Part shown: one piece after another, positions 3,762 to 34,482 of the stretch
How the letters are laid out: every line of letters starts with the position of its first letter
Numbering within the stretch: the first letter of the stretch is position 1
NCBI GenBank assembly: GCA_963796105.1
Contig: CAWCKJ010000007.1
Location: 96,001 to 160,000 of the forward strand
Source of the DNA: a candidate division FCPU426 bacterium
GTDB lineage: Bacteria > Oederibacteriota > Muellerivitia > Muellerivitales > Muellerivitaceae
Length of the DNA stretch: 64,000 nucleotides
Reading direction: 5' to 3'
Program-made: the position numbers and the translations under genes
Notes under the pieces: model-generated
The model's input: the letters and a program-made list of their open reading frames with translations, nothing else
The model's database searches: none
What the model was told of the DNA's origin: nothing

Positions 3762-4782
3762 TAGAACATAAGGGTCAGGTCTTGTAAACGGCATTACGAA
3801 TCTTTTCCTCAAGACCCTTTTCCTCACGAATGCGTTTCTTCATCCTTGCCACCGCATGGCTTACCGCGGAGTATTTTACCCCCATCTTCTTAGCCACTTC
3901 CCCTAAACTTAATCGGCATATCTGACGCAAGGCCCATACCGCCGCTTCCCGCCCTTCGTTTTTCTGCCGGGTCGGAACCACCATATCTTTCACCATAATC
4001 CCATGCATTTTCCCGATCTTTTTCAGCGTTTCCTCGGCATCCGGCAAGCCCAATTTCTGTTGTTCCCTGTGCGCCTCATGGTGATGCTTCCCCCTAATCT
4101 TCCCTTTAATGTGCTCCTCAAAACTTTTCCCCCCCAATATGATCTGCGATGTTACTTGCTCCCATGGGCTCTCTTTCTTCCTCAAACCTTCCAACACGAA
4201 TTTCCGGTACAAACCCCGCGCCTTATGTTTCACTTTTCCAAACTGTTCCAAAAGCCATTTATTTTCCACCCATTCCGGCTCGGTCTCATAACCTGCCGTA
4301 GCCCGGTAACTGCTCCATTTCCATTCCTTCGGATGCTTGACCATCTTGGCCCGGACCGGATTCAAGACCACATACCTGCATAATTCCTTTAAATAACTAT
4401 CCTTATGGACCAAAATCGCCTTATAACGCCCCTGGTACAAATGTCCCGCGCGGTTGTGACGCCGGTTGAATCGAAGGGTATAAATTCCATTTAAGTGGCG
4501 GAGGGCTTGGGAAAGATTAGCTTCGGGGGTTTCTACCAGCAAATGGTAATGGTTATCCATCAACACCCAGGCATGAACGACCACCCCGTAAGAATCAACG
4601 GTATCCGCCAACGCCCGAATAAAAAGCCACCGGTCCTTGTCATCGCGAACGATAGGTCTTCGTTCGTTCCCGCGGGAGGTGATGTGATATACAGCGCCTG
4701 GATATTGAATTCTTAAGGGACGTGCCATTTCAGTATCTTAATCCGCCCTTATGCCGTTTTCAAGACCTGACCCTTGTGTTCT
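3762..4782 (-). mobile_element. IS-like element, copy 2 (Y1/HUH transposase, inverted repeats)
   Basis: Inverted repeat 3770-3794 / 4751-4775 with one mismatch, extendable outward (AGAACAT / GTGTTCT). Same orientation as copy 1. Confidence 0.85.
3775..4728 (-). CDS. Y1/HUH (RAYT-like) transposase, copy 2
   Basis: 317 aa; four visible residue differences from copy 1 (HEAQG/HKARG, TRRK/TRQK, VFKT/VYKT). Confidence 0.92.
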   Translation of the reverse strand: MARPLRIQYPGAVYHITSRGNERRPIVRDDKDRWLFIRALADTVDSYGVVVHAWVLMDNHYHLLVETPEANLSQALRHLNGIYTLRFNRRHNRAGHLYQGRYKAILVHKDSYLKELCRYVVLNPVRAKMVKHPKEWKWSSYRATAGYETEPEWVENKWLLEQFGKVKHKARGLYRKFVLEGLRKKESPWEQVTSQIILGGKSFEEHIKGKIRGKHHHEAHREQQKLGLPDAEETLKKIGKMHGIMVKDMVVPTRQKNEGREAAVWALRQICRLSLGEVAKKMGVKYSAVSHAVARMKKRIREEKGLEEKIRNAVYKT

Positions 4783-5612
4783 TGTCCAGCCCCGCCATGC
4801 CGGTAGCTAAAACCCTCATGCCGGTAGGTGATCCCCGCCATGCCGGTAGGCAACCACTCCATGCCGGTAGGTGATCCCCGCCATGCCGGTAGGCAACCAC
4901 TCCATGCCGGTAGTTGAATCCCCCATGCCGGTAGTCCAGCCCCGCCATGCCGGTAGCTAAAACCCTCATGCCGGTAGGCGACCCCCACCATGCCGGTAGC
5001 TGAAACCCCCATGCCGGTAGGTGATCCCCGCCATGCCGGTAGGCAACCACTCCATGCCGGTAGTTGAATCCCCCATGCCGGTAGTCCAGCCCCGCCATGC
5101 CGGTAGCTAAAACCCTCATGCCGGTAGGCGACCCCCACCATGCCGGTAGCTGAAACCCCCTGCCGGTAGTCCAGCCCCGCCATGCCGGTAGCTAAAACCC
5201 TCATGCCGGTAGTCCAGCCCCGCCATGCCGGTAGCTAAAACCCTCATGCCGGTAGTCCAGCCCCGCCATGCCGGTAGCTAAAACCCTCATGCCGGTAGGT
5301 GACCCCCACCATGCCGGTAGCTAAAACCCTCATGCCGGTAGTTGAAAGCCCCATTCCGGTAGGCGACCCCGTCCATGCCGGTAGCTGAAACCCCCATGCC
5401 GGTAGGTGATCCCCGCCATGCCGGTAGCTAAAACCCTCATGCCGGTAGGTGACCCCCGCCATGCCGGTAGTTGAAAGCCCCATTCCGGTAGGCGACCCCG
5501 GCCATGCCGGTAGCAGAAACCCTCATGCCGGTAGGCAACCTCCGCCATGCCGGTAGTTGAAAGCCTCATGCCGGTAGGCGATCCCCGCCATGCCGGTAGT
5601 CGAGACCCCGTC
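4783..5612. repeat. Tandem array: 38 CATGCCGGTAG cores separated by 10-11 nt variable spacers
   Basis: Cores counted by hand from 4796 to 5599; period 21-22 nt; two CATT variants and one core lacking its A; 150-bp internal duplication 4860-5009 / 5010-5159. Confidence 0.97.
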
Positions 5613-5770
5613 CAATGTCGCCGGAAAACTGGCTCTCGAAAGAAGTAAGGGATTAGAGGCATTTTAAACATTGGATTTATTAGGCAACTACAAAAAAATG
5701 TCTTTTGGAGGGAAAAAGTTTGCCTGGGAATCATTTCGAATGGGAAAAGGGCCGGATTCAGGCCTATTTC

Positions 5771-21080: not shown

Positions 21081-21632
21081 GTAGGGTCGAGGACTGGCGA
21101 GGTGATGTGCAGGTTGATCCTTGGCTTGTTTCCCCGTTTCCTTCGCTCCGCGGACATTACTCCGCTTCTCCTGTCTGCCGAAGCTTCAGCGCAGGCAGAT
21201 AGCTACTTTTAACCCGTCCTACTCCCTCTTGCCTTCGACCGCCTTCCCGCGTTGCGTTATACGGCCTACCTTTTTCCAAGTATTTCTACTTGGGGCAAGG
21301 AGGGTCTCTCCAGTTGCTCAATGTGTCCTTGTCTTCATGCCGTGGCTAAGCACCCCGCCAGAGTGTTCCAGCGCATTGGCCATCTGGCCGCTGTTCCATG
21401 TTGCCTTCATCCCACGACGGAGGATTCGGCCTCTGGGGCTATTGTTTTCGGGGCCACCTATGCCTTCACTTGCGTTACGGCCTGACGACTCGCTCACCAT
21501 CCCGAAGATGGCTTTGTCGATGGGCTTCAGGCATTAAGTTTCCCGCTTGCCTGCCATCCTAGCTAATGGGCTTTGGCTATTACCCATGCAAGTCTACCTC
21601 TTGCTGAACACTCCTGCCTTTTCTGGACGCGC
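21081..21632 (-). mobile_element. Group II intron remnant, copy B (internal deletion removes ORF and domain V)
   Basis: Sense 5' end GCGCGTCCAGAAAAGGC and 3' end CCAGTCCTCGACCCTAC. Aligns with copy A except for a deletion joined near 21141. Confidence 0.85.
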
Positions 21633-22494
21633 GTAGGGTCGAGGACTGGCGCGGCGATGTGCAGGTAAACCCTTGGCTTGTTTCCCCGTTTCCGGTTCCG
21701 TGCCCGTTTAGGGTCTTCCATCATTCCGTTTCCAGCCCCCGCCACCTCGAACGCAACGTGCGGATTTCCCGCATTGCGCTCTCCTGTTGCTTTCGCGTCA
21801 AAGTTTATGGTGCTTATCGAAACCGGCAGTGCTTTCAAGTATGGTTCGCCTATGAACTTTCCCCTACTCCACCTGTCCCGGCTTTCTAAGCTTTCCCTTT
21901 AACGTATATCCCTCGTCTCAGGTCTTGCAGACTAATGGACGTCTTTTTCATACCGTCCCTGCCTCCCACTTTTGCCGAAAGATTTCACAACAGCAGGGTT
22001 ACTTCGCTCCACGGACATTACTCCGCTTCTCCTGTCTGCCAAAGCTTCAGCGCAGGCAGATAGCTACTTTTAACCCGTCCTACTCCCTCTTGCCTTCGAC
22101 CGCTTTCCCGTTTTTCGGTTATACGGCCTACCCTTTTCCAAGTATTTCTACCTGGGGCAAGGAGGGTCTCTCCAGTTGCTCAATGTGTCCTTGTCCTCAT
22201 GCCGTGGCTAAGCACCCCGCCAGAGTGTTCCAGCGCATTGGCCATCTTGCAGCTGTTCCATGTTGCCTTCATCCCACGACGGAGGATTCGGCCTCTGGGG
22301 CTATTGTTTTCGGGGCCACCTATGCCTTTACTTTCGTTACGGCCTGACGACTCGCTCACCATCCCGAGGATGGCTTTGTCGATGGGCTTCAGGCAGTCGG
22401 TTTCCCTCCTGCCTGCCATCCTAGCTAATGGGTTTTGGCTATTACCCATGCAAGTCTACCTCTTGCTGAACACACCGGCCTTTTCTGGACGCGC
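21633..22494 (-). mobile_element. Group II intron, copy A: ribozyme domains present, RT/maturase ORF almost wholly deleted
   Basis: Domain V GAGCGCAATGCGGGAAATCCGCACGTTGCGTTC (21749-21781; AGC triad, AC bulge), domain VI ending ACCCTAC, residual ORF start MKKTSISLQDLRRGIYVKGKA* (ATG 21951) and residual end RWSR...KALP. Confidence 0.9.
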
Positions 22495-22506
22495 CGTCGT
22501 GGACAA
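22495..22506. repeat. Hairpin repeat R0 (half site; 5' exon of the intron)
   Basis: CGTCGTGGACAA is the right arm of the consensus and abuts the intron 5' end. Confidence 0.85.
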
Positions 22507-22551
22507 CCCGAACCCTAAAATATCGAGACTGCTGTGGTCACAGTTTTGGTT

Positions 22552-23520
22552 CTACTTTTGATTCCCGATTTTGGCGTCAACTCCAGATACTTCTACAACC
22601 GCCTTCCAAAGGGCGTCCTGATTTGCGCGGTCATGGAGGTGTTCATGGCGCATGATCTCAATGGGACCCGTCATCTTTTTTGGAGGCGAGCAAAAGAACT
22701 TGCCAGAAACATCGACGCCAAACTTCGAGGCGGCGAGATACCTTTTGGCCCCTTCATCGACGGAATGTGACATTCCGGGAATAAGTTTCGAAATCCGCAC
22801 AAATACGTTCTTCATAAGAAAACCTAGATTGCGAGGCGCCAGGGTATCTGGAGCGGCCCCGGGTGAAACCGCGTATACGGCCATGTCCGCAGGAAGCTTT
22901 CGAGCAAGGGCCGCGACCCACCACGCGACAAATATTTTAGCGTCAGAGTAAGCCGTGCTAGCCTTGTATTTTACATTCGGGGAGCTGCGCAAAATCGCTT
23001 CTATGGCTGAAACCCGGTCGCCTTTGTACTCTTTCGCGGCGAATGCCGCCAAGTCGGTAAATTGAAACATGGGTACATCACCTCGCGCAGGTTCCGCGCC
23101 GGCAATAACAATACGAGCATCCGGCGCCAGAAGTCCGGCACCTAAAAGTCCCATCGTTAACTGGTGATGGCCGATCAACGGCGCTTGCGAAGCCTCAATG
23201 TTCTCGCTTGTCACAACACGTTCTTTGCCTGGCATCATACCAGCGTTGAGAAGGAGAAAATCTATGGGTTCGCCTCCCGCTCCCTTAACTAGCTCGGCGA
23301 CCGCCTTCTTCACGCTTGCAAACGAATCTAGGTCGAGGGCAAGACCGGTGATGTTTTGTGTTCCGGCATCGATCTTTAACCTGCTAACCGCTTCATCCAC
23401 CTGGGGCCGGCTACGTCCAGTGACTATAACCTGACTCCAACCATCCATGGCAAGTTGCTTGGCTGCCGAGTATCCTAAGCCAGACGTAGCGCCGGTAACG
23501 AGTGCGACAGGCTTTTTCAT
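22552..23520 (-). CDS. Short-chain dehydrogenase/reductase
   Basis: TGATSGLG, LNAG and YSDAK motifs. Confidence 0.9.
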   Translation of the reverse strand: MKKPVALVTGATSGLGYSAAKQLAMDGWSQVIVTGRSRPQVDEAVSRLKIDAGTQNITGLALDLDSFASVKKAVAELVKGAGGEPIDFLLLNAGMMPGKERVVTSENIEASQAPLIGHHQLTMGLLGAGLLAPDARIVIAGAEPARGDVPMFQFTDLAAFAAKEYKGDRVSAIEAILRSSPNVKYKASTAYSDAKIFVAWWVAALARKLPADMAVYAVSPGAAPDTLAPRNLGFLMKNVFVRISKLIPGMSHSVDEGAKRYLAASKFGVDVSGKFFCSPPKKMTGPIEIMRHEHLHDRANQDALWKAVVEVSGVDAKIGNQK

Positions 23521-23569
23521 AGTTTGTCTCCTAAGTCTAACATTGTGGGAAATAGAACCATTTAATTAT

Positions 23570-23629
23570 TGTAGTATACGCTACAGAATGACCCAACTAC
23601 TGTCAAGTGATATTGTTGCGGTTGCTACA
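23570..23629. promoter_or_regulatory. Two candidate TetR operators between the divergent SDR and TetR genes
   Basis: TGTAG-N6-CTACA (23570-23585) and TGTTG-N6-CTACA (23614-23629). Confidence 0.6.
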
Positions 23630-23669
23630 AATAGATTGTCCGAAGTGTTTCGTATGGGTAAAATGAAGC

Positions 23670-24257
23670 ATGAGTCGAAAAATAGAATTTAATTACGATA
23701 ACGCGGTGGATCAAGCGATGCGGGTTTTCTGGGGTGAGGGATACTCTGGCGCATCATTAAAAGACCTTCTCAAGGCGATGAAAATTGGGGAAGGCTCCTT
23801 CTACAATACCGTCAAAAGCAAAAAACAACTCTACATCGAATGCTTGAATCGATATGGAGAGGTCGAAGGTAATAAAAGAATTTTGGCTCTAACATCAGCC
23901 CCGAATGCGCGTCTCGGACTTCGGGCTATGCTAAGCGCAATGTTCGATTGTCTCGATGATCCGAAGAATCCTTCATCTCTTTGCATGATTGCGGCAATGA
24001 TTTCCAATGATGTCATGGCTGATAGCGAATTAAAGAAAGCTGCTATTGCCAGGGTCAATCAAGGCAAAAAGTTAATTGAAGATAAGATTGATGAAGACAA
24101 AAAAGCTGGGCGTCTTCCTAAAAGCTATGACTCACATACAGTTGCTGATGTCATAGTTACTTACTTCCAGGGCATTTGGCGTATGGCCATGATTTCATAC
24201 AAACGGGAAAAGTTCGAGCGCGAATCAGAAGCATTTCTTCAAGGATTGGGCCTTTAG
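23670..24257 (+). CDS. TetR/AcrR-family regulator
   Basis: AMRVFW..GYSGASLKDLLKAMKIGEGSFYN...SK N-terminal HTH. Confidence 0.9.
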   Translation: MSRKIEFNYDNAVDQAMRVFWGEGYSGASLKDLLKAMKIGEGSFYNTVKSKKQLYIECLNRYGEVEGNKRILALTSAPNARLGLRAMLSAMFDCLDDPKNPSSLCMIAAMISNDVMADSELKKAAIARVNQGKKLIEDKIDEDKKAGRLPKSYDSHTVADVIVTYFQGIWRMAMISYKREKFERESEAFLQGLGL

Positions 24258-24354
24258 CTTTAGAATTTCCGAATCACACTGATACTCCAACTTCCAAGTC
24301 ACTGACACTTCGCCCGAAGTGAAACAAGAAAATTAGTACAAAAAGGTCTTTTTT

Positions 24355-24386
24355 CTTGTCCACGAAGGGTCCCCGTCGTGGACAAG
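24355..24386. repeat. Hairpin repeat R1
   Basis: CTTGTCCACGAAGGGTCCCCGTCGTGGACAAG. Confidence 0.92.
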
Positions 24387-24513
24387 CTTTCGGTCAAAAG
24401 CGTCACCAAGAACGCCATGTTAAAATTCGCGGCCAAAATTTTCCACACTGACTGTTTTTCAAAAGAACCAATCGCTCACCCTGCCCAATTTGGCCTTCCG
24501 GGCATGCGCCGGT

Positions 24514-25509
24514 CTAATTTTTTGATAGAATTTCCAACAATTGGGTTCGGTATTCCGGATCTTTCATGGTTTTTACTTCTCTTTCATCCATCAATTGTCT
24601 CAGCCAACATTTTTGATAAGGCTGACCGTTTTTCGCCATGGTTTTCAATTTTTCAAAAAAGTCCCTTATCACTGTTGGATAATCGAGGCCGGTACTCGCA
24701 ATAGCCCGATGTTTGGCAAAAGTTTTGTTTTTTGTATTTAAGTTTGGGTTTCGAAGGTCATAAGTGAAAACAAGTTCGTCTGTGAATAACAATCCGGTTC
24801 CCTTCTTTGGCTTCTCTGGTAAATGGCAGTTGAGCCTGTTGTAATAACCTATATAGAAATTAAATTTTACTGTGAATTGGAGTTGGTCTTTTATTTGCTT
24901 GATATTTGAGCTGTAATCAAAGTCGTCGTCTCCTACCGAAACACTCCCTTCCAGTGGCAGCTCGCCGATTTCCTGATATTTGCCGTTTATAATTTTAAAA
25001 ACATCATAGTCGTAAGATTCGACACCGCTTCCACCATCTGTTTGAACTCCGAGCAAAACAAATAAGTTCGGCGGGCTATCCACAATCATTGGTTTAATTG
25101 CCTTGTATTTTGCGAGTTCGGTAACCATTCCAAGATACGACATTTTTCCCTGTTCTAAAATAAATAGGCCGGTGCAATTATTGCCATTCCCATTAACTGA
25201 AATCGTCAATAAGGTTCTTCCATCATTTATTTTGGAGGCCACAATAACTGGCGTTGTTTCAGCTAATTCTTTGGCGTCGGTCTCTAACTTATCTCCTTCT
25301 GAAAGGAATTGAGGAAGCAAATCGGAAAAGAATTTGTCCCGTCCTTCTCCGTTCACGTGATATTCGTTCAAAATCTCCAATAATTTTCCCCTGGGGGTTT
25401 TCCAATCCATCTTTTCACCAAGGCTTATAGAGGGGATAAGGCAGAGGACAATGAACCACGACAGAAAAAGTTGTCCGGGGACTATTTTGGTTTCTTGTCC
25501 ATTTTTCAT
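24514..25509 (-). CDS. Hypothetical exported protein
   Basis: AGGAG RBS before ATG 25509; hydrophobic signal; visibly AT-rich. Confidence 0.7.
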   Translation of the reverse strand: MKNGQETKIVPGQLFLSWFIVLCLIPSISLGEKMDWKTPRGKLLEILNEYHVNGEGRDKFFSDLLPQFLSEGDKLETDAKELAETTPVIVASKINDGRTLLTISVNGNGNNCTGLFILEQGKMSYLGMVTELAKYKAIKPMIVDSPPNLFVLLGVQTDGGSGVESYDYDVFKIINGKYQEIGELPLEGSVSVGDDDFDYSSNIKQIKDQLQFTVKFNFYIGYYNRLNCHLPEKPKKGTGLLFTDELVFTYDLRNPNLNTKNKTFAKHRAIASTGLDYPTVIRDFFEKLKTMAKNGQPYQKCWLRQLMDEREVKTMKDPEYRTQLLEILSKN

Positions 25510-25532
25510 ACTATTCTCCTGCAAGAAAACTT

Positions 25533-25603
25533 TTGTCCACGGCGCGGGCACTTCATGGACAACCCTTTTTCCCTCTCCACTCTGGGTCCCCGTCGTGGAC
25601 AAG
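25533..25603. repeat. Hairpin repeats R2a (inverted, 25533-25562) and R2b (25576-25603)
   Basis: TTGTCCACGGCGCGGGCACTTCATGGACAA and TCCACTCTGGGTCCCCGTCGTGGACAAG. Confidence 0.85.
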
Positions 25604-25649
25604 GAAGAATGTTAATTTCCTATGATTGAATTGTTTACAACGCTAGGAT

Positions 25650-25682
25650 AAAAATCGGGCAGGCAATTTAAGCCCGCCCGAT
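25650..25682 (-). terminator. Candidate intrinsic terminator after dipZ
   Basis: ATCGGGCAGGC / GCCCGCCCGAT stem with an adjacent A run (U run on the minus strand). Confidence 0.55.
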
Positions 25683-25730
25683 CACTTAGAAGATTAAGCT
25701 TGAACACATCGAGCAAAGGTCAAAACCAAA

Positions 25731-27461
25731 TCATCCGAAAGTAAAGGCATAGACGGAGGTACCTGCGTTTTGGAATTCGATACGCAGGCGATGGGAGCCG
25801 GGCTTTCCCTTTAAGTCCGCCAGGTTATAAAGCCGCTGGGTGTCCAGTGTCACCTTTCCATCCTTCACATCCGCTCCTCCCTCGCCGCCAATGGCTTTTC
25901 CATCAAGGAAAAGGGAGACCTGGTCGCCCTTGTTCGCCGGGCCGATCACCAGATACACCTTGTCCGCCGTGAATTGAATCTCAAGGGCCGAGCCCTGATC
26001 CGGCTTGGCCGCCTCGCCCGTAAGCATCCAACCGCCCTCGTAGCCGATCTGGTGGGACTTCAGGGACTTCGGCAGGGAATAAACCTGCTTCCCGGCGACG
26101 GGTTTTTGCGGCGAGACGAAACGCTCCAATCGGTTCAACCCCAAATAAGATTCGGGGGTCTGGTCGTAATCCTCAGATGGGGCCTGCGCCAGGGTAGCGG
26201 CCCCTTCCACGGGATGGCCGGCCTCAGCCAGCAGCTTTCTGATGGCGGCGTCCATCTCCTCGTAATGGCCCTCGCTGAAATGAGCCAGACGGATATGACC
26301 CTTGTCGTCGATCAGGTACTCGGCGGGCCAGTACATATTTTGGTAGGCGTTCCAGGTTTTAAAGTCGTTGTCCTGGGGGACAGGATAGGTGATCTCGAAC
26401 TGTTTCAGGGCTTTTTGGACGTTGGCGGTTTCCTTCTCAAAGGCAAACTCGGGCGCGTGGACCCCCACTAGGACGAAATGGTCCGGACCGTATTTTTGAT
26501 ACCAGGCCTTGGTGTTGGGAAGGGTCCGGAGACAGTTGATGCAACTGTAGGTCCAAAAGTCAACCAAAACCACCTTTCCCCTCAACCCCGCCAGTGTTAG
26601 GGGAGGGCTGTTGAGCCAGTTCGTGATGCCGGCGAACTCTGGCGCCGGGCCCATGTCCGCAAGTTCCCCCCCATTTCTGCGCTTTCCTGGCGGGATTTCC
26701 TTCCCCTCAGGGTATCCAACTGCTCGCTGACGATCTTGTTGTTTTCAACCCCATTGACCAGGCTCCCATAGGAAGGAAAAGCCTCCAGGATCTTCAGCTG
26801 AATGGTCTTATCGTAATTGGTGTAAATGAGAAGGGCCACGCCGATCATGATGACGCCGAAGACCTGCTGGATGCGGCCCGTGTACTTGTTTAACTTGCGC
26901 ATCCGGGCGAAGAGGAAAGAACCCCCCAGGGAGACCAGGAACAGCGGTATCCCCAACCCCACCGCGTAGGCGAGGGTCACCAGTACCACCTGAAGATTGA
27001 CCGATTGGGTGGCGGCTAAGGTGGCGATGGTGGCCAGGATCGGTCCGGCGCAGGGCGCCCAGACCAAGCCGATGGAAAAACCCGCCACGTAGCCAGCGCC
27101 GAATCCCGTCCCTTCGCCCTTCCCCTGAAGGCGGTTTTGCAGGGGCTGAAGAACCTGGTTAATCCAGGTCTCGAACTTCGCGCCCAGGGAGGGGAATAAA
27201 AGGGCCACACCCAAAAGGCCGATGACAATGACCGCGACTAGTCTGAAGACATTGGCGTCAATGTGGAGGAAACGCTCTAGGTAGGACACAAACAGCGTGA
27301 AAAGGGTGAAGCTGGTCATGACCCCCAGGGTCAGGCCGAAGGGTTTTTCCCTTTCCCCCGGTTGAGGAGACAGAAAGCACCAGGGGCAGAAGGGGCCAAA
27401 TGCAGGGGGCGAGGATGGTGGCGAAGCCAGCCAGGAAGCTGAAGAAGAGAAGGAAAAGCAT
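25731..27461 (-). CDS. dipZ: DipZ-type protein (CcdA membrane domain, thioredoxin, C-terminal domain); two apparent frameshifts
   Basis: LAPCIWPLLP, GLVWAPCAGPIL, DFWTYSCINC, TPESYLG. Frame changes in an A5 run (about 27346) and a G7 run (about 26669), both minus strand. Confidence 0.85.
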
Positions 27462-27562
27462 GGGAACCCCTTTCGGTGGATTTGTTGACTTAAACTACAA
27501 CGAATCACCCTGAAAATTTACGGAAACCCCTTCCATCAACACCTCTTTTTGCGTGAACCCCA

Positions 27563-28225
27563 TCAAGGGTGTTGGTGAATGGCTTCTTGCGCCACCTTCA
27601 ACAATTCATCCGTATCAACCCGCACTTTAATGTCTGGGTTGAAATAAACGTAATGAATAATCCCTTTTTGATCGACGACATAAGCGGCCGGGACCGGAAG
27701 CAGGTGGAGCTGGTTCCCCGTTGCCGAATCCAGGTCCACGCCGAAACTTTTCATTTTGGCCAGGGTTTCCGGGTTGAGCCGGTAGGCCAGGTGAAATTTC
27801 CGGGTCAATTCCATGGAACGGTCCGAAAGGAGGGTGTAGTTGATCTGGTGCTTGTCCAGGCTTTCCTTAAGTTTTTCCGGCTTATCCGGGCTTATGGCCA
27901 GCATCTGGTATCCCATTTCTAGGAGTTTTGGCTCGATCTTCACCAACTGGCCCATTTGAAGGTTGCAATAGGGGCACCATCCGCCTCGGTAAAAGATCAG
28001 CACCGTCGGCTTTTTCAGGATTTCGGACTTAAAATGAAAATCTTTCCCGTCCAGGGTTTTTAAAATCCCGTCAGGTATGGAATCCCCTGATTTAAGTGGG
28101 TGGACATCTTCGGCTTTGTCCGCTACGAATTTGTTCATGGGTGCGGCCACGACACCCCCCCTTGAAGCAACCATCGAAAGGCAAAAAAAGCTTACGAATA
28201 AAAACGCCCCTATTTTCACTCTCAT
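27563..28225 (-). CDS. Exported peroxiredoxin-like (AhpC/TSA) protein
   Basis: FYRGGWCPYC and LPVPAAYVVD motifs; signal peptide. Confidence 0.88.
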   Translation of the reverse strand: MRVKIGAFLFVSFFCLSMVASRGGVVAAPMNKFVADKAEDVHPLKSGDSIPDGILKTLDGKDFHFKSEILKKPTVLIFYRGGWCPYCNLQMGQLVKIEPKLLEMGYQMLAISPDKPEKLKESLDKHQINYTLLSDRSMELTRKFHLAYRLNPETLAKMKSFGVDLDSATGNQLHLLPVPAAYVVDQKGIIHYVYFNPDIKVRVDTDELLKVAQEAIHQHP

Positions 28226-28460
28226 ATCCTCCGTTGACTATTGGTTGAACGGAATATTAAAAATCCAAAAAGGGCCTTATGACCCATCTCTTGGTAGGCG
28301 AAAGGAGAAAATCGAACGGCAGGAAGTCAACTAGGCATTGAAATTGCCGCCAGTTCTTTTTCGGCGCCCCAAAAGCTTTTTTCCGCCTCCCGTGGTGCCC
28401 TTTCCCTTCGAGGGCCCAGGGCCCTGAGCACCCTTGAAGGTGTGGTTCAACTTTCCTTTT

Positions 28461-28985
28461 TTACGGTTTCTTTTCGGACACGAACCGCACTGCGGCGGAG
28501 TTTATGCAATACCTCAGGCCCGTGGGTAGCGGCCCGTCGTCGAAAACATGGCCCAGGTGCCCCCCACAGCGGGGGCAATGGACCTCCGTCCGGTCCATGC
28601 CCAAGGAAGAATCGGTTTGGGAGGCCACGTTTTCCGGATAGAGGGGCTTATAAAAACTGGGCCACCCGGTTCCAGACTCGAACTTGGTGCCGGAGGAGAA
28701 AAGCTCCAGGCCGCACCCGGCGCACACATAGACCCCCTTCGCATGGTTGTCCCAATAGGCGCCGGAAAAGGCGGCTTCCGTTCCCCCTTGTCGAAGGACA
28801 TCGAACTGTTCGGGATTGAGGATTTTCTTCCATTCGGAGTCGGTCTTAACGACCTTGTCACCCCTGTATTTTCCTTTATAACATTCTTTCTCCTTGTGGA
28901 CCGCCGAATCTTTCGCGAACACGGCATAGGATAGGGCGGATAACACGAAGAGAATTCCCAATAACAATCCCATCATTTTTCTCAT
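28461..28985 (-). CDS. msrB: Exported peptide methionine (R)-sulfoxide reductase
   Basis: [22 protein letters not shown] and RYCINS; two CxxC; signal peptide. Confidence 0.95.
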
Positions 28986-29030
28986 GGCAAGCTTTTTAGG
29001 TGGTAAATTTCTTTCCCCTCTTTACAAGAA

Positions 29031-29056
29031 TACGGCTCAGGGCAGGATAAGGTTAC
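29031..29056 (-). promoter_or_regulatory. Candidate ECF sigma promoter for msrB
   Basis: GTAACC-N16-CGTA on the minus strand, about 45 nt upstream of the start. Confidence 0.4.
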
Positions 29057-29169
29057 CCTGCCATCGGTTACATCTTTTGGGTCGTCTGGGTCAAGAACAC
29101 CCAAGGAAATCCGGGGGTCCCGGGAACCAAAATAATATACATAATCCTTTTGTTGAGGCCGTATCTGTT

Positions 29170-29952
29170 TCAAGGAACAATTGGGTAAACCCAACCCACA
29201 CCACCAATTTTCATAGTGTACTCATCTTCCAAAAAAATGGCGAGGCCGGTGAAGCTCTTTTTCCATTCAGGCTCCAAGGAAACGGTAGTTTTAATCCATT
29301 CTGCTTTTTTCAAGGAAACACTCCTTATTCCAACAACCGAGCGAACTACAAAATTTTCGGTCAAGTCCCTGCCTTTGTTTTCTCCACTTTCAACATGGGT
29401 TATTAAATTATTTTCGAAAACAGCCATCATGACTTTCCAGGGCCCGCCCGTTTGCGATCCGGCTAAAGGCTGGAGCTTAATCTTGAGGGCCATTCCTCCC
29501 GTGACCGGCGAAACAGCGACGACCACCCGAGCCGATGCCTTGAGGTTGTCCGGCTCCTCGATTTCCCGGTGGGCTCTGGCGCCATCCGAAGCGACGAAAC
29601 CTGAGCGTCCCGAAACAACCATTTCAGGGGTATAAAGTGAGGAGGAACTCAAAGCGGAAGAATATTGACGCTGACGTTCCGTGAAAAATGACGAGGAGAA
29701 GGGATCTTTCCATCCCAGGTAATCCCAGTAATCCACGTGGAAGGCGAGCGGCAGGGCTTTACCGGCGCGGAAAAGTTCCATTCCCCAGCCGTTGACAAGG
29801 TCTCCCGCCGGAGGGCAACTGGAACAGCCTTGGGAAACAAACAATTGGATCAAGAGTGGCTGTTCGGGAATTGGACGGGACTGTCCATGGGCCGGAATCA
29901 GCAAAGACAGCCCCATCAATACTAGCGACGCTTTGAAATATTTAAAAACCAT
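29170..29952 (-). CDS. DUF1223-like exported thioredoxin-fold protein
   Basis: LF.SQGCSSCPPA, FHVDYWDYLGWKDPF, YTPE, GEN.G motifs; start uncertain (29952 or 30048). Confidence 0.88.
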   Translation of the reverse strand: MVFKYFKASLVLMGLSLLIPAHGQSRPIPEQPLLIQLFVSQGCSSCPPAGDLVNGWGMELFRAGKALPLAFHVDYWDYLGWKDPFSSSFFTERQRQYSSALSSSSLYTPEMVVSGRSGFVASDGARAHREIEEPDNLKASARVVVAVSPVTGGMALKIKLQPLAGSQTGGPWKVMMAVFENNLITHVESGENKGRDLTENFVVRSVVGIRSVSLKKAEWIKTTVSLEPEWKKSFTGLAIFLEDEYTMKIGGVGWVYPIVP

Positions 29953-30134
29953 GCTTTTCTTTGACACCACTTTAAAAGAGTCGCCATTAAAGGTTATTGG
30001 CGGGGATAAGGCAAGGCCCGAAGAACCCGCTAAATGATTTAGATTCACGTTTTTTCCAATTTATCTTTCAGTAGCGAAATACCCTTGTGGCTTTGTTTAA
30101 GTTACTGATTTTTGATTAATATTTGAAATGTTCA

Positions 30135-30163
30135 TTGTCCACGACGGGTCCCCGTCATGGACA
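30135..30163. repeat. Hairpin repeat R3
   Basis: TTGTCCACGACGGGTCCCCGTCATGGACA. Confidence 0.92.
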
Positions 30164-30176
30164 GCTTTAAAGCCAT

Positions 30177-30764
30177 TCAAGGAAGAATACTTAGTCCCGC
30201 CACAATAGGAATATATTCCTCGGTATCCCCGCTAAGAAAAATAATGTCCATTCCTACCATGCAATAAACGGCCAATCCCTGGGAAAGCGATACTTCCAAA
30301 CCGATACCGCCCAAGGCCATGGGACAAGTATCGGAAATATGGTTGTCGAAGGAGTAAGGCATGCCAAACGACATACCCTTTTCCCTTGAATTGTCGGAAT
30401 AAAATGAAAAACCGCCCCCGGCCTCAATAACGATATGAAGCGGATCATTCCCAAAGCGCTTCTTGCAAACGAGCGATTCATTCAAGATTGTTTTCCCGCC
30501 GCCCAATGAAAAAACAGTCTGGTCAGGGCCGGAATTAGGGGGTTGATAGGCGATTGAATAATAAGCGGTCTGCTCGCCCAGGGTAAATTGATCGCCAATT
30601 GGAAGGCCGAGAAAAAGGCCCGTCCCCCAGCCCAGGGCATCAACGTCACTGCCTGTGGTGGCCACACCCCCAAAAGGTGAAATTTCAATATTTGAGATAT
30701 CGCCCTTGGCCCATACTGTTGATGTGGCAAACACAATAGAAATTAAAATGAATAATATTTTCAT
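30177..30764 (-). CDS. Putative small outer-membrane beta-barrel protein
   Basis: Signal peptide; alternating Gly/hydrophobic strands; AAGGAG RBS. Confidence 0.65.
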   Translation of the reverse strand: MKILFILISIVFATSTVWAKGDISNIEISPFGGVATTGSDVDALGWGTGLFLGLPIGDQFTLGEQTAYYSIAYQPPNSGPDQTVFSLGGGKTILNESLVCKKRFGNDPLHIVIEAGGGFSFYSDNSREKGMSFGMPYSFDNHISDTCPMALGGIGLEVSLSQGLAVYCMVGMDIIFLSGDTEEYIPIVAGLSILP

Positions 30765-30792
30765 TTTTTCTCCTTAATAAAACTATTTATCA

Positions 30793-30817
30793 TCCAATCT
30801 GGGTTCCCGTCGTGGAC
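30793..30817. repeat. Hairpin repeat R4 (left arm degenerate)
   Basis: TCCAATCTGGGTTCCCGTCGTGGAC, directly against the stop codon at 30818. Confidence 0.8.
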
Positions 30818-31906
30818 TTATTTTGTAATCGACCCCGCAGTCGCTTCCTCCACAAAAAGCCTAGATGCGGGAGCCAGATTGGTTCCTGAGAAAGTGGCCT
30901 GATTTAAGATGGTTGTCTGGACGTTATATAGGGTCGAACCGGTGGCCACCGGATAAGCCGCCGAAAGATCCGCCGGGGAGTTTATATCGGGCCCAATGGA
31001 AGTATAGGAATCATACGTGGTCACCGGCCCTCCGGTTTGTTGAATAACAACAATCCCATCCGAATTCCCCTCGTAGGTCCAAGTGATGGCCGTACCTGCC
31101 GCGTTGGCCGTAAGGCCGCCAGGGGCGCTGACCGATGCCGAGGTGACGGTTCCCAGGGAAGTGCTGACCGACATCGAGTAACTTCCCGCGAGCTGATATG
31201 TCACGGCCGTGGAGTAAGAATACCAAGCCATTCCGTTGTAATTCGTTAAGTATGGAAGCGTCAAGGGGCCGCTTGGAGTGTTTAAAACCACCGAATCCGT
31301 GGTTTCCGGCAAACCGTTGACGGTAATCCATGCAAAAGGTGTCATACTCAATGTTCCATCCCCCCAAGCGTAGCCCTGGACATAGATACCCGGTGGAAAT
31401 GTGGCTGTTGGTGTCGATGTTGCTGTAGCTGGAACCGTATTGGTGATAGTTGGGCTGTTGGTGGGCGTCCTCGTGGGGGTTTTGGTCGTGGTATTTGTTG
31501 GGGTATAAGTAATGGTAGGAGTTCCTGTTGGCGTAGCCGTAGGGGTTATGGTAGCTGTATTCGTCTGGGTAGACGTGGCCGTTTTCGTCGGGGTGGAAGT
31601 GATTGTCGGCGTGACTGTGTTCGTGGGGCTGTTGGTCGGGGTAGAAGTCGATGTAACCGTTGGTGTGGAAGAAGCTGTTGAGGTGGCCGTCGATGTGGGG
31701 GTGGAAGTGGAGGTGCCGGTTTGCGTACAAGTCGAGGGATAGCAGACACTGGTGGATGTAAGGGTCATAGTCGGTGTATCGGTAGCGGTAGCTTTTTTAG
31801 CCGGGGGGTTTGTGGGGTTATTAGAGTTGCTGCAGGCGATCGGGAAAAGTCCCAAGAAAAAAAGAAGGATTAAACCTAAACCCAAAAGGAAAAATGATCG
31901 GCGCAT
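30818..31906 (-). CDS. Lipoprotein with long Thr/Pro stalk
   Basis: PIAC lipobox then SNSNNPTNPP; TPT repeats; GGAGG before ATG 31906. Confidence 0.8.
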   Translation of the reverse strand: MRRSFFLLGLGLILLFFLGLFPIACSNSNNPTNPPAKKATATDTPTMTLTSTSVCYPSTCTQTGTSTSTPTSTATSTASSTPTVTSTSTPTNSPTNTVTPTITSTPTKTATSTQTNTATITPTATPTGTPTITYTPTNTTTKTPTRTPTNSPTITNTVPATATSTPTATFPPGIYVQGYAWGDGTLSMTPFAWITVNGLPETTDSVVLNTPSGPLTLPYLTNYNGMAWYSYSTAVTYQLAGSYSMSVSTSLGTVTSASVSAPGGLTANAAGTAITWTYEGNSDGIVVIQQTGGPVTTYDSYTSIGPDINSPADLSAAYPVATGSTLYNVQTTILNQATFSGTNLAPASRLFVEEATAGSITK

Positions 31907-32009
31907 TGATGCCTCCCGCAAAAGATTCTATAAAGACCTTGAAATAGATTACCACTCCAACGGAAATCGAGGGGTTGGTTTTTCAAGGCCAAATAATCCA
32001 TGATTTATC

Positions 32010-32037
32010 GTCCACGAAGGGTCCCCGTCATGGACAA
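32010..32037. repeat. Hairpin repeat R5
   Basis: GTCCACGAAGGGTCCCCGTCATGGACAA. Confidence 0.92.
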
Positions 32038-32055
32038 GTGCATTCATCCTAAAGT

Positions 32056-32487
32056 TTATATTCCATTAAGTTCTTTCGTATTATCGCTGAAGTAAATACT
32101 GACCAGAACCCAATCAGTCGACACACGGTAATAATAAAAATTCCAAACCAATGGTAACTTCTCAGTTTTTAATAAATAAATTTCTCGAACAACCGAAGTC
32201 CCATAAATTTTCTGAGTTACAAAATCAAAACCTAAAACTTTTCCATAAAGGTTAATTCCCGTTGTGGTTTCCTTTTTTAAAGCGGCAATGTCTTGTGGCT
32301 TGTCCGTTAATGCAGTTGATCCTTGAAATATTTGATCGTAAGCGTTGTCGACTTGCCCAACCAGGAGAAGATTCAAAAAAGCTTCCGATTTTTCTTTCGG
32401 AATATTTCTGGTGGTTTGTTGTGAAAACCCAGTTGAAGCAATTAAAAAGACAGCGCTGATAATGCTGATTTTTATTATTCCTTGCAT
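32056..32487 (-). CDS. Hypothetical exported protein
   Basis: AGGAGG RBS, signal peptide, 143 aa. Confidence 0.75.
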   Translation of the reverse strand: MQGIIKISIISAVFLIASTGFSQQTTRNIPKEKSEAFLNLLLVGQVDNAYDQIFQGSTALTDKPQDIAALKKETTTGINLYGKVLGFDFVTQKIYGTSVVREIYLLKTEKLPLVWNFYYYRVSTDWVLVSIYFSDNTKELNGI

Positions 32488-32610
32488 GGTTCCTCCTAAG
32501 ATATTTGATATTCTTAATCTATTAAGACCAAAGTTTCCTTCGCGTTCTTCGACTCGTGCAATCCCTCACCATCTTCGCCGGTTAACGATGCATTTTATCT
32601 CTTTGGGTTA

Positions 32611-32654
32611 AAAAGGGTTGTTCCTTACGGGTCCCCGTAAGGAACAACCCTTTT
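32611..32654. repeat. Hairpin repeat R6 (variant stem with compensatory changes)
   Basis: AAAAGGGTTGTTCCTTACG GGTCCC CGTAAGGAACAACCCTTTT. Confidence 0.8.
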
Positions 32655-32658
32655 CTCC

Positions 32659-33753
32659 TTATCCGCCGATAAGACGCCGATATTCTGCCGATAAAACGTA
32701 GTAGGCGTCCCGCTTTCCTGATCCTTGTTTCTCAATCAATCCTATCTTCACCCATTTGGTTAATAAGTCCCTTGCGGCGCGTTCTTTGATGTTAAACAGG
32801 GTACAAAGGTTTTTTGTCCTGAGCTGCAAATTCTTTCCAAAGTAAGTAAGCGCACGCCTTTCTCGCGGGCCGATCACTTGCAAGAGTTTAATGTCCTGGG
32901 TGCTTTGCGGGGCTTGGCGATTTTTAGCGGCGGCCAAGGCCTTTTCCTTGACCCTCTCAAAAATGATAGCGGCACCGTTGAGGAAGTATTCCAACCATAG
33001 GGTAATATCCGGGTTGGGGTTGTCGTAATAATGGACGCCTTGGCAATGGTGCAGGTTGTTGTAATAGCCTTTTAAATCCTCCGCGTAATATTCCTCCAGT
33101 GAATAGAAGCGCTTCAAGCTGTACCCCGCCCGGTAAAGCATAAGGGTGGCAAGCGCCCTGGCGGTCCGCCCGTTGCCGTCCATGAAAGGGTGGATGGTGA
33201 CGAATTGATAATGCGCCACACCCGCCTTAAGAATGGGGTGGGTTTCTTTGTCGCCGTTGAGCCAAGCCGCGAATGATTTCATGAGGGGGGGAACCTCCTT
33301 GGCTTCGGGGGGGAAATAGACCGCCTTTCTTATAGCCGAATCATAAATGGCATTTTGGGAATCCCGGTACTCCCCCCGGAGCTTTCCCTTCACGATCCCT
33401 TTCTGGACGATCGAATGGATTTCCTTAATGAGGACTTCCGTCACCGGTTTTTGGGTTTTGGAATGCCGATAAACGAGGTCAAGGCAGTCGTAATAGTTCA
33501 TCGCCTCCCGCTTGTCGATTTCACGGGCGATTACCGTTTTGCCCTCTAATAGTTCCTTGGTTTGCTTCAAGGTGAGGCGGTTTCCCTCGATCTTCGTGGA
33601 GTAATGGGTCATCCTCGCCGAGGCCTCTTGGCGGAAATCGCGCTCAAGGTCGAAAGGCAGGTCCAGGGCCCCGACGATCTCACGAGCCGCTTCCATTTTC
33701 CCCAGGAGCTTTAGCATGGGGGAAGTCACCCGAAACACAGGTTGATAAGCCAT
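32659..33753 (-). CDS. Fic-domain protein with N-terminal inhibitory motif and C-terminal wHTH
   Basis: HPFMDGNGRTAR catalytic motif; STKIEGN inhibitory motif. Confidence 0.92.
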   Translation of the reverse strand: MAYQPVFRVTSPMLKLLGKMEAAREIVGALDLPFDLERDFRQEASARMTHYSTKIEGNRLTLKQTKELLEGKTVIAREIDKREAMNYYDCLDLVYRHSKTQKPVTEVLIKEIHSIVQKGIVKGKLRGEYRDSQNAIYDSAIRKAVYFPPEAKEVPPLMKSFAAWLNGDKETHPILKAGVAHYQFVTIHPFMDGNGRTARALATLMLYRAGYSLKRFYSLEEYYAEDLKGYYNNLHHCQGVHYYDNPNPDITLWLEYFLNGAAIIFERVKEKALAAAKNRQAPQSTQDIKLLQVIGPRERRALTYFGKNLQLRTKNLCTLFNIKERAARDLLTKWVKIGLIEKQGSGKRDAYYVLSAEYRRLIGG

Positions 33754-33947
33754 GAATCCTCCGCCGTATATCTGCCGTTAAACTGCCGATAAATTATACC
33801 TGAAAATTCCCTTGCCTGGATACCGCCCGCCAGTCTTCCCTCATATTTGAACCAATTATGAATGCCCACTCTTTTGCCATTTCTTCCATGGGGTTTCAAT
33901 GATGGTTTCGGGACATAGCCCCGGGGAAAGGTCAGGCGTAAAAAGTA

Positions 33948-33978
33948 TTGTCCCTTCAGGGATACCCCGCCGCGGACA
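33948..33978. repeat. Hairpin repeat R7 (degenerate)
   Basis: TTGTCCCTTCAGGGATACCCCGCCGCGGACA. Confidence 0.5.
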
Positions 33979-34050: not shown

Positions 34051-34482
34051 TCACTTGATTTTCTTAAATAAAAAATACCTTGTGCTTCCCTTGGGGAATG
34101 GTTTTAAAGAGGCAAATCTTTGAAATCCCGCCTTCCGGTAGAAATCCGGAGCCTGAAAACTGAAGGTGTCCAAGTGGACATACTTACAGCCCCTTTTTTC
34201 GGCTATCTTTTCAGCTTGATGGAGCAATTGAGTGCCGACGCCCTGGTTCCGGTGTTTTTCATCCACCCACAACATCTTCACGAATAGCCAACCCCAATAG
34301 GTCCCGCTGGCCAAACCTCCCACTATTTTTCCCTCGGAATCCACGGCCTTCAGATCCAGTTCCCGCCAATTGAAGCGGCCGATTTTTTTACCATTATATG
34401 AATTGAGCTTATGTCCGATGAAATCCCGGAACCCTTTGTCCGATGCCGGAACGGACTTAATGGAATTTGGAGTTTTGGTCAT
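34051..34482 (-). CDS. GNAT acetyltransferase
   Basis: LWVDEKHRNQGVGTQLL; LDTFSFQAPDFY. Confidence 0.9.
   Translation of the reverse strand: MTKTPNSIKSVPASDKGFRDFIGHKLNSYNGKKIGRFNWRELDLKAVDSEGKIVGGLASGTYWGWLFVKMLWVDEKHRNQGVGTQLLHQAEKIAEKRGCKYVHLDTFSFQAPDFYRKAGFQRFASLKPFPKGSTRYFLFKKIK

Follow-up and report, generated by a model that had tools for sequence, protein, structure and literature searches.

Gene cassettes of one or a few genes are probably exchanged, in a candidate division FCPU426 bacterium and its relatives, at a 30-bp recombination site for which the likely enzyme is a shortened serine recombinase absent from this assembly. Each cassette begins with the right arm of the site and finishes with the left arm, exchange falls at positions 13-16 of the site, and a cassette that recurs in several genera has other genes beside it from one genus to the next. 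As to origin, we lean on balance towards a tRNA-targeting large serine integrase that lost its zinc ribbon and coiled coil, giving rise to a symmetric 30-bp site and an order-wide, cross-genus cassette pool; the array described here would then be an orphan. Our literature search, which had subscription journals and supplements outside its range, found no description of the site or of a zinc-ribbon-less serine recombinase associated with cassette arrays.

The gene array in the window

The window is the whole stretch of 64,000 nucleotides that was analysed. A first-pass annotation, made from its sequence alone, had proposed mobile cassettes separated by nine copies of a repeat. All nine are present, some of them a few bases away from where they had been placed, with modules of unrelated genes between them:

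21081..21632, minus strand: group II intron fragment B (Rfam RF02003 at 21470-21606; ends from sequence), without a reverse-transcriptase ORF
21633..22494, minus strand: group II intron fragment A (Rfam RF02003 at 22332-22468), its 5' end adjoining the half site
22495..22506, minus strand: site 1, left arm only, intron-split (from sequence)
22552..24257: cassette with an SDR oxidoreductase (22552-23520, minus) and a divergent TetR (23670-24257, plus) (Pfam)
24356..24385, minus strand: site 2, near-consensus
24514..25509, minus strand: cassette, 331-aa protein with no Pfam family, GC 0.41
25533..25562, plus strand: inverted site with a degenerate centre
25573..25602, minus strand: site 3
25731..30048, minus strand: cassette with DUF1223, msrB, a peroxiredoxin-like gene and dipZ, the last split over two ORFs
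30135..30164, minus strand: site 4
30177..30764, minus strand: cassette, 195-aa protein, probably a barrel of the outer membrane (weak match to PagL, E 0.0017)
30790..30819, minus strand: site 5, degenerate
30818..31921, minus strand: cassette, Thr/Pro-rich likely lipoprotein (from sequence; no Pfam family)
32008..32037, minus strand: site 6
32056..32487, minus strand: cassette, 143-aa protein with no Pfam family, GC 0.36
32618..32647, minus strand: site 7, within a perfect 19-bp-stem palindrome at 32612-32653
32659..33753, minus strand: cassette, Fic-domain protein (Pfam PF02661)
33948..33978, minus strand: site 8, degenerate, 31 nt
34051..34482, minus strand: GNAT gene, a cassette whose upstream site cannot be recognised in the window

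The gene content that had been read from the sequence agrees with Pfam, which matched SDR, TetR, thioredoxin/DsbD (dipZ), AhpC/Prx, SelR (msrB), DUF1223, Fic and GNAT; four window ORFs had no Pfam family, one of which later gave the PagL match listed above. The remarked shift in base composition between modules holds (GC 0.36-0.52 across eight segments), as does the closeness of copies to stop codons: for the four full copies on the right the distances are 12, 0, 18 and 11 bp. The repeat is intergenic, and a genome-wide scan found it clustered and not confined to this array. The supposition of a recombinase encoded outside the window fits our finding no enzyme within it. Allowing up to three mismatches, the site pattern gave four matches at three places in the window, with 0.00 expected from 100 shuffles.

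Exchange at the centre of the site

On the strand of the genes the site measures 30 bp and consists of two 14-bp arms around an unpaired GA. About 46-66 copies occur in this genome, clustered and co-oriented, and 28 of the order's 32 genomes contain the site, with reversed-pattern controls giving 0; this tally replaces one of 24/24 for the family, which used a 16-nt half pattern and included single matches at control level. Half-pattern matches in three genomes of other families lack the right arm. The centre reads GA/TC in 388 of 394 sites selected by their outer boxes, and a box spacing of 16 accounts for 568 counts, every other spacing having at most 6, although many loci were retrieved by the site pattern itself, which inflates such conservation figures. 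Among 209 canonical sites there are 150 co-oriented neighbour pairs less than 5 kb apart, and the median cassette length is 1000 bp. Sites on the putative leading strand number 34 of 66, the GC skew being weak.

The claim that these are mobile cassettes is borne out by related genomes, in which the repeat coincides with breakpoints of gene content. The SDR and TetR segment (22534-24385) is 91.8% identical to L047:4620-6468 of a genome from another genus (G002), and the match breaks off at the end of site 2. Likewise, the GNAT gene has a counterpart in the same genome (L043:9884-10308) that is 73% DNA-identical and flanked by two sites. For the window array as a whole we found no exact empty site; the flanking cellulase has different neighbours in three relatives. 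Site pairs with related flanks shared the upstream flank only in 52 cases and the downstream flank only in 39 (91 in total), with a single pair sharing both.

Non-consensus letters of the left arm were common to sites with the same upstream cassette in 13/61 comparisons and to those with the same downstream cassette in 0/55; those of the right arm were common to the same downstream cassette in 80/145 and to the same upstream one in 23/296 (random 0.10). The flank and arm comparisons draw on 488 sites, the full set of 508 unique ones less 20 that introns have split. Thus, left-arm variants follow the upstream module and right-arm variants the downstream one, and exchange therefore takes place at the centre of the site and not at the edge of the hairpin. 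A variant at position 12 moves with the upstream cassette (L048/L163), and the variable position 17 follows the downstream cassette. The exchange point lies between positions 13 and 16, and the GA there is nearly invariant. Judged from these sequence comparisons, central exchange would fit a double-stranded site cut at the central dinucleotide, as with a serine recombinase.

A shortened serine recombinase as the candidate enzyme

Nineteen proteins of 275-283 aa, with identities of at least 74%, form a single clade (support 100/100) that comprises a catalytic and a recombinase domain (PF00239, PF07508) and occurs in relatives but not intact in this genome. About 200 C-terminal residues are missing throughout the clade in comparison with large serine integrases, the zinc ribbon and coiled coil being absent from 19/19 members. 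They are 55-61% identical to their full-length relatives, their catalytic motifs are invariant, their fold matches serine integrases (Foldseek), and a catalytic-domain dN/dS of 0.02-0.06, where synonymous sites are unsaturated, points to purifying selection.

A site, the last of its array, lies just past the stop codon of the gene, in convergent orientation, in 10/10 short-clade loci as against 0/5 loci of full-length relatives; in nine of the former it stands 44-100 nt from the match end, and in L416 it is intron-split. On the far side of the gene, a further site within 6 kb is lacking at all five intact copies, in contrast to the 150 close neighbour pairs counted above. All 5 genomes with an intact short gene hold 20-71 sites, compared with a median of 5 in the other 27, a correlation confounded by assembly quality and kinship. 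Ten genomes have at least 20 sites: five with the intact gene, two with remnants (G019 and G022) and three without a trace of it (G006, G011 and G023, whose assemblies are 89-99% complete); PF07508 is absent from G006, G011, G022 and G023. The genome under study (G000) encodes just two serine integrases, both full-length. Of the short recombinase gene it keeps no intact copy but a 64-nt tail (C6:187378-187441), which neighbours a site. Because just this tail is retained here, the short enzyme can be connected with the site only by inference. A tail copy within one array belongs to a toxin-antitoxin cassette.

In the mechanism that we propose, the short enzyme would bind double-stranded DNA with one arm per subunit and cut at the central GA. 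Any site might recombine with any other, because the domains that enforce the attP x attB pairing are missing, and the asymmetric GA would keep the cassettes co-oriented. Two papers bear on these domains: the recombinase domain contacts 13 bp and the zinc domain positions 16-24 (PMC3783163), and an integrase without its coiled coil turns promiscuous (PMC5499577). The window array would be an orphan comparable to CALINs: either a passing element supplies its enzyme in trans, or it has ceased to be active.

The system may descend from serine integrases that target the tip of a tRNA, as its left arm resembles the 3' end of tRNA-Asn. The tRNA-Asn 3' pattern gave 77 matches, of which 56 were not called whole tRNA genes by the filter, a few of these being tRNA copies cut by the edge of the retrieved sequence. 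In many of the matches the sequences diverge directly behind that GA; one match, from this genome, continues into a right arm. Against such a descent, the full-length relative closest to the short enzyme in this genome is located at a tRNA-Gln, and the integrase that carries a tRNA-Asn arm is only 27% identical to the short enzyme.

Alternative enzymes and readings

The most serious competing explanation, which we regard as unlikely, retains the cassettes and the central crossover and ascribes them to another enzyme, chromosomal or on passing elements, with the short recombinase as a passenger at array ends. The candidates would be an unrecognised protein or the full-length integrase with a tRNA-Asn arm at C4:258995-260818 of this genome, whose half-site shares GTCCA and GGGGA with the left arm. 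The three site-rich genomes without a trace of the short gene and the conservation of the site across an order speak for it. Counting against the short enzyme are some sites with a longer right part containing a hairpin, which a fixed-spacing dimer would not read as a normal arm. Against the rival, a recombinase that is a mere passenger should come with its own sites, and around the short gene no site is conserved except the 30-bp cassette site. Moreover, among the families tested, the single Xer alone is common to the site-rich genomes. An iterated tyrosine-recombinase profile found no further remote member in the genome, and no recurring gene stands upstream of the arrays (1894 ORFs at 272 loci). 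IntI is rejected with a best TIGR02249 score of 67.2 bits in this genome against a cut-off of 265. Reverse transcriptase is absent from G000, G006 and G011, and rve-type DDE transposase from G006 and G011; IS110 occurs in 3/24 family genomes besides G000, with none tied to the site. Viral contigs, considered as phage carriers, have neither the site nor the short recombinase.

That the Xer recombinase itself moves the cassettes, as in pdif modules, seems to us quite improbable. Such modules consist of genes flanked by palindromic recombination sites that measure only about 28 bp and form alternating XerC/XerD pairs. The Xer gene is present in 23/24 family genomes and in a second family of the order and encodes the only tyrosine recombinase common to five site-bearing genomes, and 28 bp of the cassette site can be written as 11-6-11. 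However, Xer has its own 11-6-11 palindrome just upstream (C3:369919-369946), which is unique, conserved in relatives and unrelated to the cassette site; its place at the terminus is putative, the GC skew being weak. No cassette site scores near 18 xer loci. The sites here are direct copies of one type, and position 17, within the would-be 6-bp overlap, varies and follows the downstream cassette.

That some other enzyme recognises a folded single strand, as in integrons, is more doubtful still. The first-pass annotation had suggested a cassette system using a short ssDNA hairpin; the cassettes stand, the folded-strand recognition is not supported. The consensus does fold well (z -5.6, -4.8 and -7.6 for three window copies) and some longer variants carry extra hairpins, but 5/8 window copies fold weakly or not at all, only 3/8 surpass all shuffles, the length is fixed, exchange occurs at the centre of the palindrome, and there is no IntI. 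Arm covariation is absent both within a site (46 co-deviating pairs at array junctions versus 42.2 +/- 5.6 in shuffles) and across a cassette's own ends (28 at circle junctions versus 27.0 +/- 4.3). The site is a homing target of group II introns, much as attC is for those of class IIC, but their entry at four different positions fits sequence targeting of an abundant site equally well.

That the repeat is an ordinary REP-type element or a terminator, and that homologous recombination shuffled the modules, is hardly credible: strong sites do follow the stop codon of the upstream gene in 40/46 cases (median 30 bp) and arrays are dispersed over many chromosomal places, but a U tract is lacking (at least 5 T in the next 8 nt at 38/508 sites), the RAYT/Y1 transposase expected to accompany REPs (PF01797) is missing from the site-rich G018, G019 and G023, panB and panC, direct neighbours in 4/5 relatives, are separated by an AT-rich gene with sites on both sides of it, and exchange is limited to the centre instead of spreading along the repeat, the linkage of each arm to its cassette largely refuting this reading.

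Relation to known systems

Integrons have so far been the model of cassette capture, and their detection relies on IntI and attC; their parts are IntI, attI and attC (Cury et al., bioRxiv 10.1101/030866). The arrays described here resemble integrons and CALINs in several respects: the cassettes are shuffled, co-oriented and mostly of a single gene, at a length of about 1 kb; toxin-antitoxin pairs and unknown genes abound in the accessory cargo; many arrays have no enzyme; and group II introns use the sites. As had been claimed, the repeat is not attC: the RYYYAAC and GTTRRRY boxes occur together at the ends of 0/508 sites and within 60 nt at 3/508. Integrons use a site of variable length and conserved structure with crossover at the R box, whereas here the spacing is fixed at 16, crossover is central and covariation is absent; their enzyme is a tyrosine recombinase at the upstream end, the candidate here a serine recombinase, convergent, at the downstream end.

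In SCCmec, the Ccr serine recombinase of one unit mobilises recombinase-less neighbour cassettes between direct att sites in all combinations, the cassettes measure 17-48 kb, the 18-nt sites lie downstream of rlmH, and excision is limited to proximal loci (bioRxiv 10.1101/2023.03.17.533233). The serine recombinase of one unit would likewise mobilise recombinase-less neighbours between direct sites in the present system, in which, however, most cassettes hold one gene, the many arrays are dispersed over unrelated places, the 30-bp site is symmetric, and the candidate enzyme lacks zinc ribbon and coiled coil and is half the size of a full-length large serine recombinase. Large serine integrases (LI/A118, Bxb1, phiC31, SPbeta) have the same catalytic and recombinase domains and fold, and their crossover at a central dinucleotide would fit the central exchange seen here, but they act on attP and attB, whereas one site type is used here and loss of directionality is predicted. 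In IS1111 elements, 11-13 bp inverted repeats meet over a short spacer in the junction (PMC11187229), a likeness to the short inverted arms here, whose spacer is 8 bp and not 10. CRISPR duplicates the whole repeat with each insertion, whereas cassette sites are two-arm hybrids.

These arrays, with 20-80 cassettes per genome, would escape tools based on IntI and attC. Should the short enzyme prove to be the catalyst, the capture of cassettes would have evolved again from a different recombinase family, as a serine-recombinase counterpart of the integron and a natural test case for the domain-loss model of directionality; the 275-aa protein would be a compact integrase, minimal in nature and free of directionality, that acts on a site of 30 bp.

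Cargo and introns

The cargo includes unknown genes, and the genes that the arrays move between genera include toxin-antitoxin pairs, acetyltransferases, methyltransferases, a beta-lactamase-fold gene and a cas1-cas2 module. Cas1, which starts 44 bp after a site, was rejected as the integrase: the gene is itself carried by a cassette, its counterpart in G002 is 98% identical over a match that breaks off within the site, and Cas1 of this site-adjacent type occurs in 2/41 genomes, G000 included. The dipZ split over two ORFs in the window has a paralogous cassette at L002:5330-7060 with a single 576-aa ORF. One DNA read run had 7% of the words present (contigs only) and zero joints between sites; no excised circle was seen.

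The copy at 22495 is a half site because two tandem group II introns (21081-22494) inserted in it, fragment A after position 12 of this last site of the array; an Rfam scan of the window found these two introns and nothing else, and RVT_1 had no match in this genome. A related intron with the left arm is also found in L163 and L435, and as to intron class, IIC may be the likelier by a narrow margin: the top PDB match, at 192 bits, is to a IIC reverse transcriptase, and one of class IIB scores almost as high (184).

The repeat and its distribution

All nine repeat copies that the first-pass annotation had claimed for the window are present within a few bases of the positions it reported; its repeat pattern gave four matches in the window as against none in 100 shuffles, and the gene content between the copies agrees with its description. 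Written for the strand that carries the cassette genes, the site has the consensus TTGTCCACGACGGG-GA-CCCGTCGTGGACAA, two 14-bp inverted arms with an unpaired GA between them. Individual features of the window are:

21081-22494: two tandem ORF-less group II introns interrupting a site, of which the copy at 22495 is one half
24356-24385: site 2
25731-27508: dipZ, as two overlapping ORFs, against one 576-aa ORF in a paralogous cassette (L002:5330-7060)
32612-32653: site 7, a perfect palindrome extending past the site, whose right arm copies a left-arm variant that is otherwise rare; template switching is the probable source
4741-5620, 204-1157, 3775-4728: a tandem 43/21-bp repeat adjoining a Y1 transposase whose tail resembles DnaA_C; the transposase gene occurs in two near-identical copies with 32-bp terminal inverted repeats

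The repeat is not restricted to the window. A weight matrix (score 20 or more) recovered 66 copies in the 4.98-Mb genome and none in two shuffles, while a conserved-half search gave 46 strong sites (null 0-1). Of these, 34 have a neighbour within 5 kb (expected 4.0; maximum 15 over 2000 draws), 32 of the 34 share its orientation, 44 of the 46 lie outside long ORFs and 40 directly follow the stop of the upstream gene. On these neighbour, orientation and intergenic counts, the sites form many short co-oriented arrays across the genome, and the question of clustering versus dispersal raised by the first-pass annotation is settled against random scatter. With one mismatch allowed, 28 of the 32 genomes from the order carry the full 28-nt pattern, the copy number ranging over 0-80 (controls 0), and three matches outside the order proved on checking to be chance half-matches. 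The site was also found in about 280 metagenome stretches, and in no viral contig. A locus of another genome (G008; L446:4513-4800, contig C3) carries three left arms at intervals of about 120 bp that contain no gene.

Cassette movement and the crossover point

Comparison with related genomes placed gene-content breakpoints at the site, as the annotation had proposed. The SDR+TetR module of the window is 91.8% identical in a genome of another genus, G002, and the match ends with the end of site 2; a cas1-cas2 module, 98% identical between the source genome and G002, likewise ends its match in the site. In G002 a relative of the window GNAT gene is flanked by two sites. Further, panB and panC, adjacent in four of five relatives, are separated in the source genome by a site-flanked AT-rich gene.

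Flanks were compared over 488 unique sites (508 minus 20 split by introns): site pairs share only the upstream flank in 52 cases, only the downstream flank in 39 and both in one. Left-arm letters that depart from the consensus are shared in 13/61 comparisons with the same upstream cassette and 0/55 with the same downstream cassette; for the right arm the corresponding figures are 80/145 with the same downstream and 23/296 with the same upstream cassette (random 0.10). The variant at position 12 goes with the upstream cassette and position 17 with the downstream one, so that exchange falls within positions 13-16. The arms showed no covariation, either within a site or across the two ends of a cassette (canonical sites, 209 out of 296). 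The centre reads GA/TC at 388 of 394 sites, and with almost no exceptions 16 bp separate the outer boxes; the retrieval of many loci by the site pattern itself inflates both figures. In a minority of sites the right part is longer and contains an additional hairpin, or is lacking. We conclude that the repeat is very probably a cassette site with a central crossover.

The way of working resembles that of integron cassette arrays and of the tandem cassettes that Ccr moves beside SCCmec (10.1101/2023.03.17.533233). The earlier reading of an integron-like layout without attC holds; no IntI was found, and by the defining tests the arrays are not integrons. By their own defining tests, pdif modules, CRISPR arrays, REP/RAYT and IS1111 (PMC11187229) do not accommodate the site either. 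Our literature search found no description of the site-and-cassette system.

A short serine recombinase as candidate enzyme

Candidate enzymes were tested family by family. RAYT, reverse transcriptase, IS110, rve-type transposases and site-adjacent Cas1 were each rejected, being missing from several site-rich genomes. Of the tyrosine recombinases just one, a single Xer, is shared; it has a palindrome of its own, a unique 11-6-11 sequence that does not resemble the cassette site. This palindrome (L019:5915-5945; source genome C3:369919-369946) lies directly upstream of the gene, is kept in relatives and is likely to be a dif site; a second conserved motif stands in inverted orientation on both sides of the gene.

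One family of serine recombinase ORFs occupies a fixed position, convergent at the last site of an array. It falls in a clade of 19 proteins, 275-283 aa long, that have a catalytic and a recombinase domain but lack zinc ribbon and coiled coil; the clade is monophyletic (support 100/100 in a tree of 41 rows). Its structural model matches serine integrases, and the dN/dS of the catalytic domain is 0.02-0.06 (five clade genes, pairs without saturation). A site lies past the stop codon at 10/10 loci of the short clade as against 0/5 loci of full-length relatives. The recombinase domain of LI integrase covers 13 bp and its zinc domain positions 16-24 (PMC3783163), and the enzyme turns promiscuous when deprived of its coiled coil (PMC5499577); an enzyme shortened by zinc ribbon and coiled coil would thus be expected to use a site of the form 14-GA-14.

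The catalyst may nevertheless be another enzyme. Full-length serine integrases number just two in the source genome, where the short gene survives only as a 64-nt tail adjoining a site. No cassette circle was seen in the DNA read data searched. Among the ten genomes with 20 or more sites the intact gene is present in five, remnants in two and no trace in three. Against this, the genomes are incomplete assemblies, and attC clusters without an integrase are common in integrons too (10.1101/030866). On balance we favour the short serine recombinase as the enzyme of the cassette site, with reasonable though far from full confidence.

On the side facing away from the array, the five intact copies lack a further site within 6 kb, and they therefore do not resemble ordinary cassettes. 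Two of them adjoin ardC, and several arrays have TraG/TraD genes nearby; both observations suggest that the carriers are conjugative elements. Recombinase-in-trio elements (L002:15641-19646; L015:3590-6716) have inserted into or close to ardC/radC regions beside arrays. An unrelated 229-aa serine recombinase with a resolvase and a weak recombinase domain (L232:9788-10477) is likewise convergent on the final site of its array, at a distance of about 60 bp.

Likely origin from tRNA tips

Aligned with the 3' end of tRNA-Asn, the left arm agrees at 11 of 16 letters; two other tRNAs reach this same top score. The tRNA-Asn 3' pattern occurs 1-9 times in each of 31 of 32 genomes. Among 77 matches from 70 loci, two arrays and the source genome, a subset of all matches, 21 were called as whole tRNA genes and 56 were not, a few of the latter being tRNAs cut by a fetched edge. 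Many matches diverge directly past the same GA, and one in the source genome is fused to the right arm of a cassette. Full-length relatives of the short recombinase sit at tRNA tips in 7 of 14 loci. Judged from these sequences, descent of the site system from tRNA-tip serine integrases is plausible at most, because the closest full-length relative in the source genome sits at tRNA-Gln and the integrase with a tRNA-Asn arm is just 27% identical to the short enzyme.

The 3' end of tRNA-Asn also occurs as dispersed copies of 21 nt (source genome C3:106668, C4:260496, C4:675168, C2:259651; fetched loci L451-L519), which often stop at GA and are followed by a ribosome-binding site and start codon. 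They are possibly a second, related type of cassette end; the enzyme acting on it would be a full-length serine integrase with an ORF that continues across the arm.

Group II introns and a CRISPR-like repeat

Group II introns enter the site at four positions, after 12 (the window), 20-21, 27 and 29-31, and recall IIC-attC introns. Their entry singles the site out as a target that is both abundant and safe; alone it is no proof of single-strand recognition.

A solo cas1 and a 111-aa Cas2-like ORF travel as a cassette followed by a 37-bp CRISPR-like repeat. The observations on this cassette and on the repeat concern these loci:

L018:5444-6875 (source genome C5:44443-45874)
source genome C6:78385-82697
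L050:8813-10815
L437

We found no literature description of such a repeat with kilobase spacers. The source genome holds 14 near-identical dispersed copies, of which four are spaced at 1.3-1.6 kb, each interval containing a complete gene, and two remnants of the short recombinase (L426 and L257) are cut exactly at this repeat.
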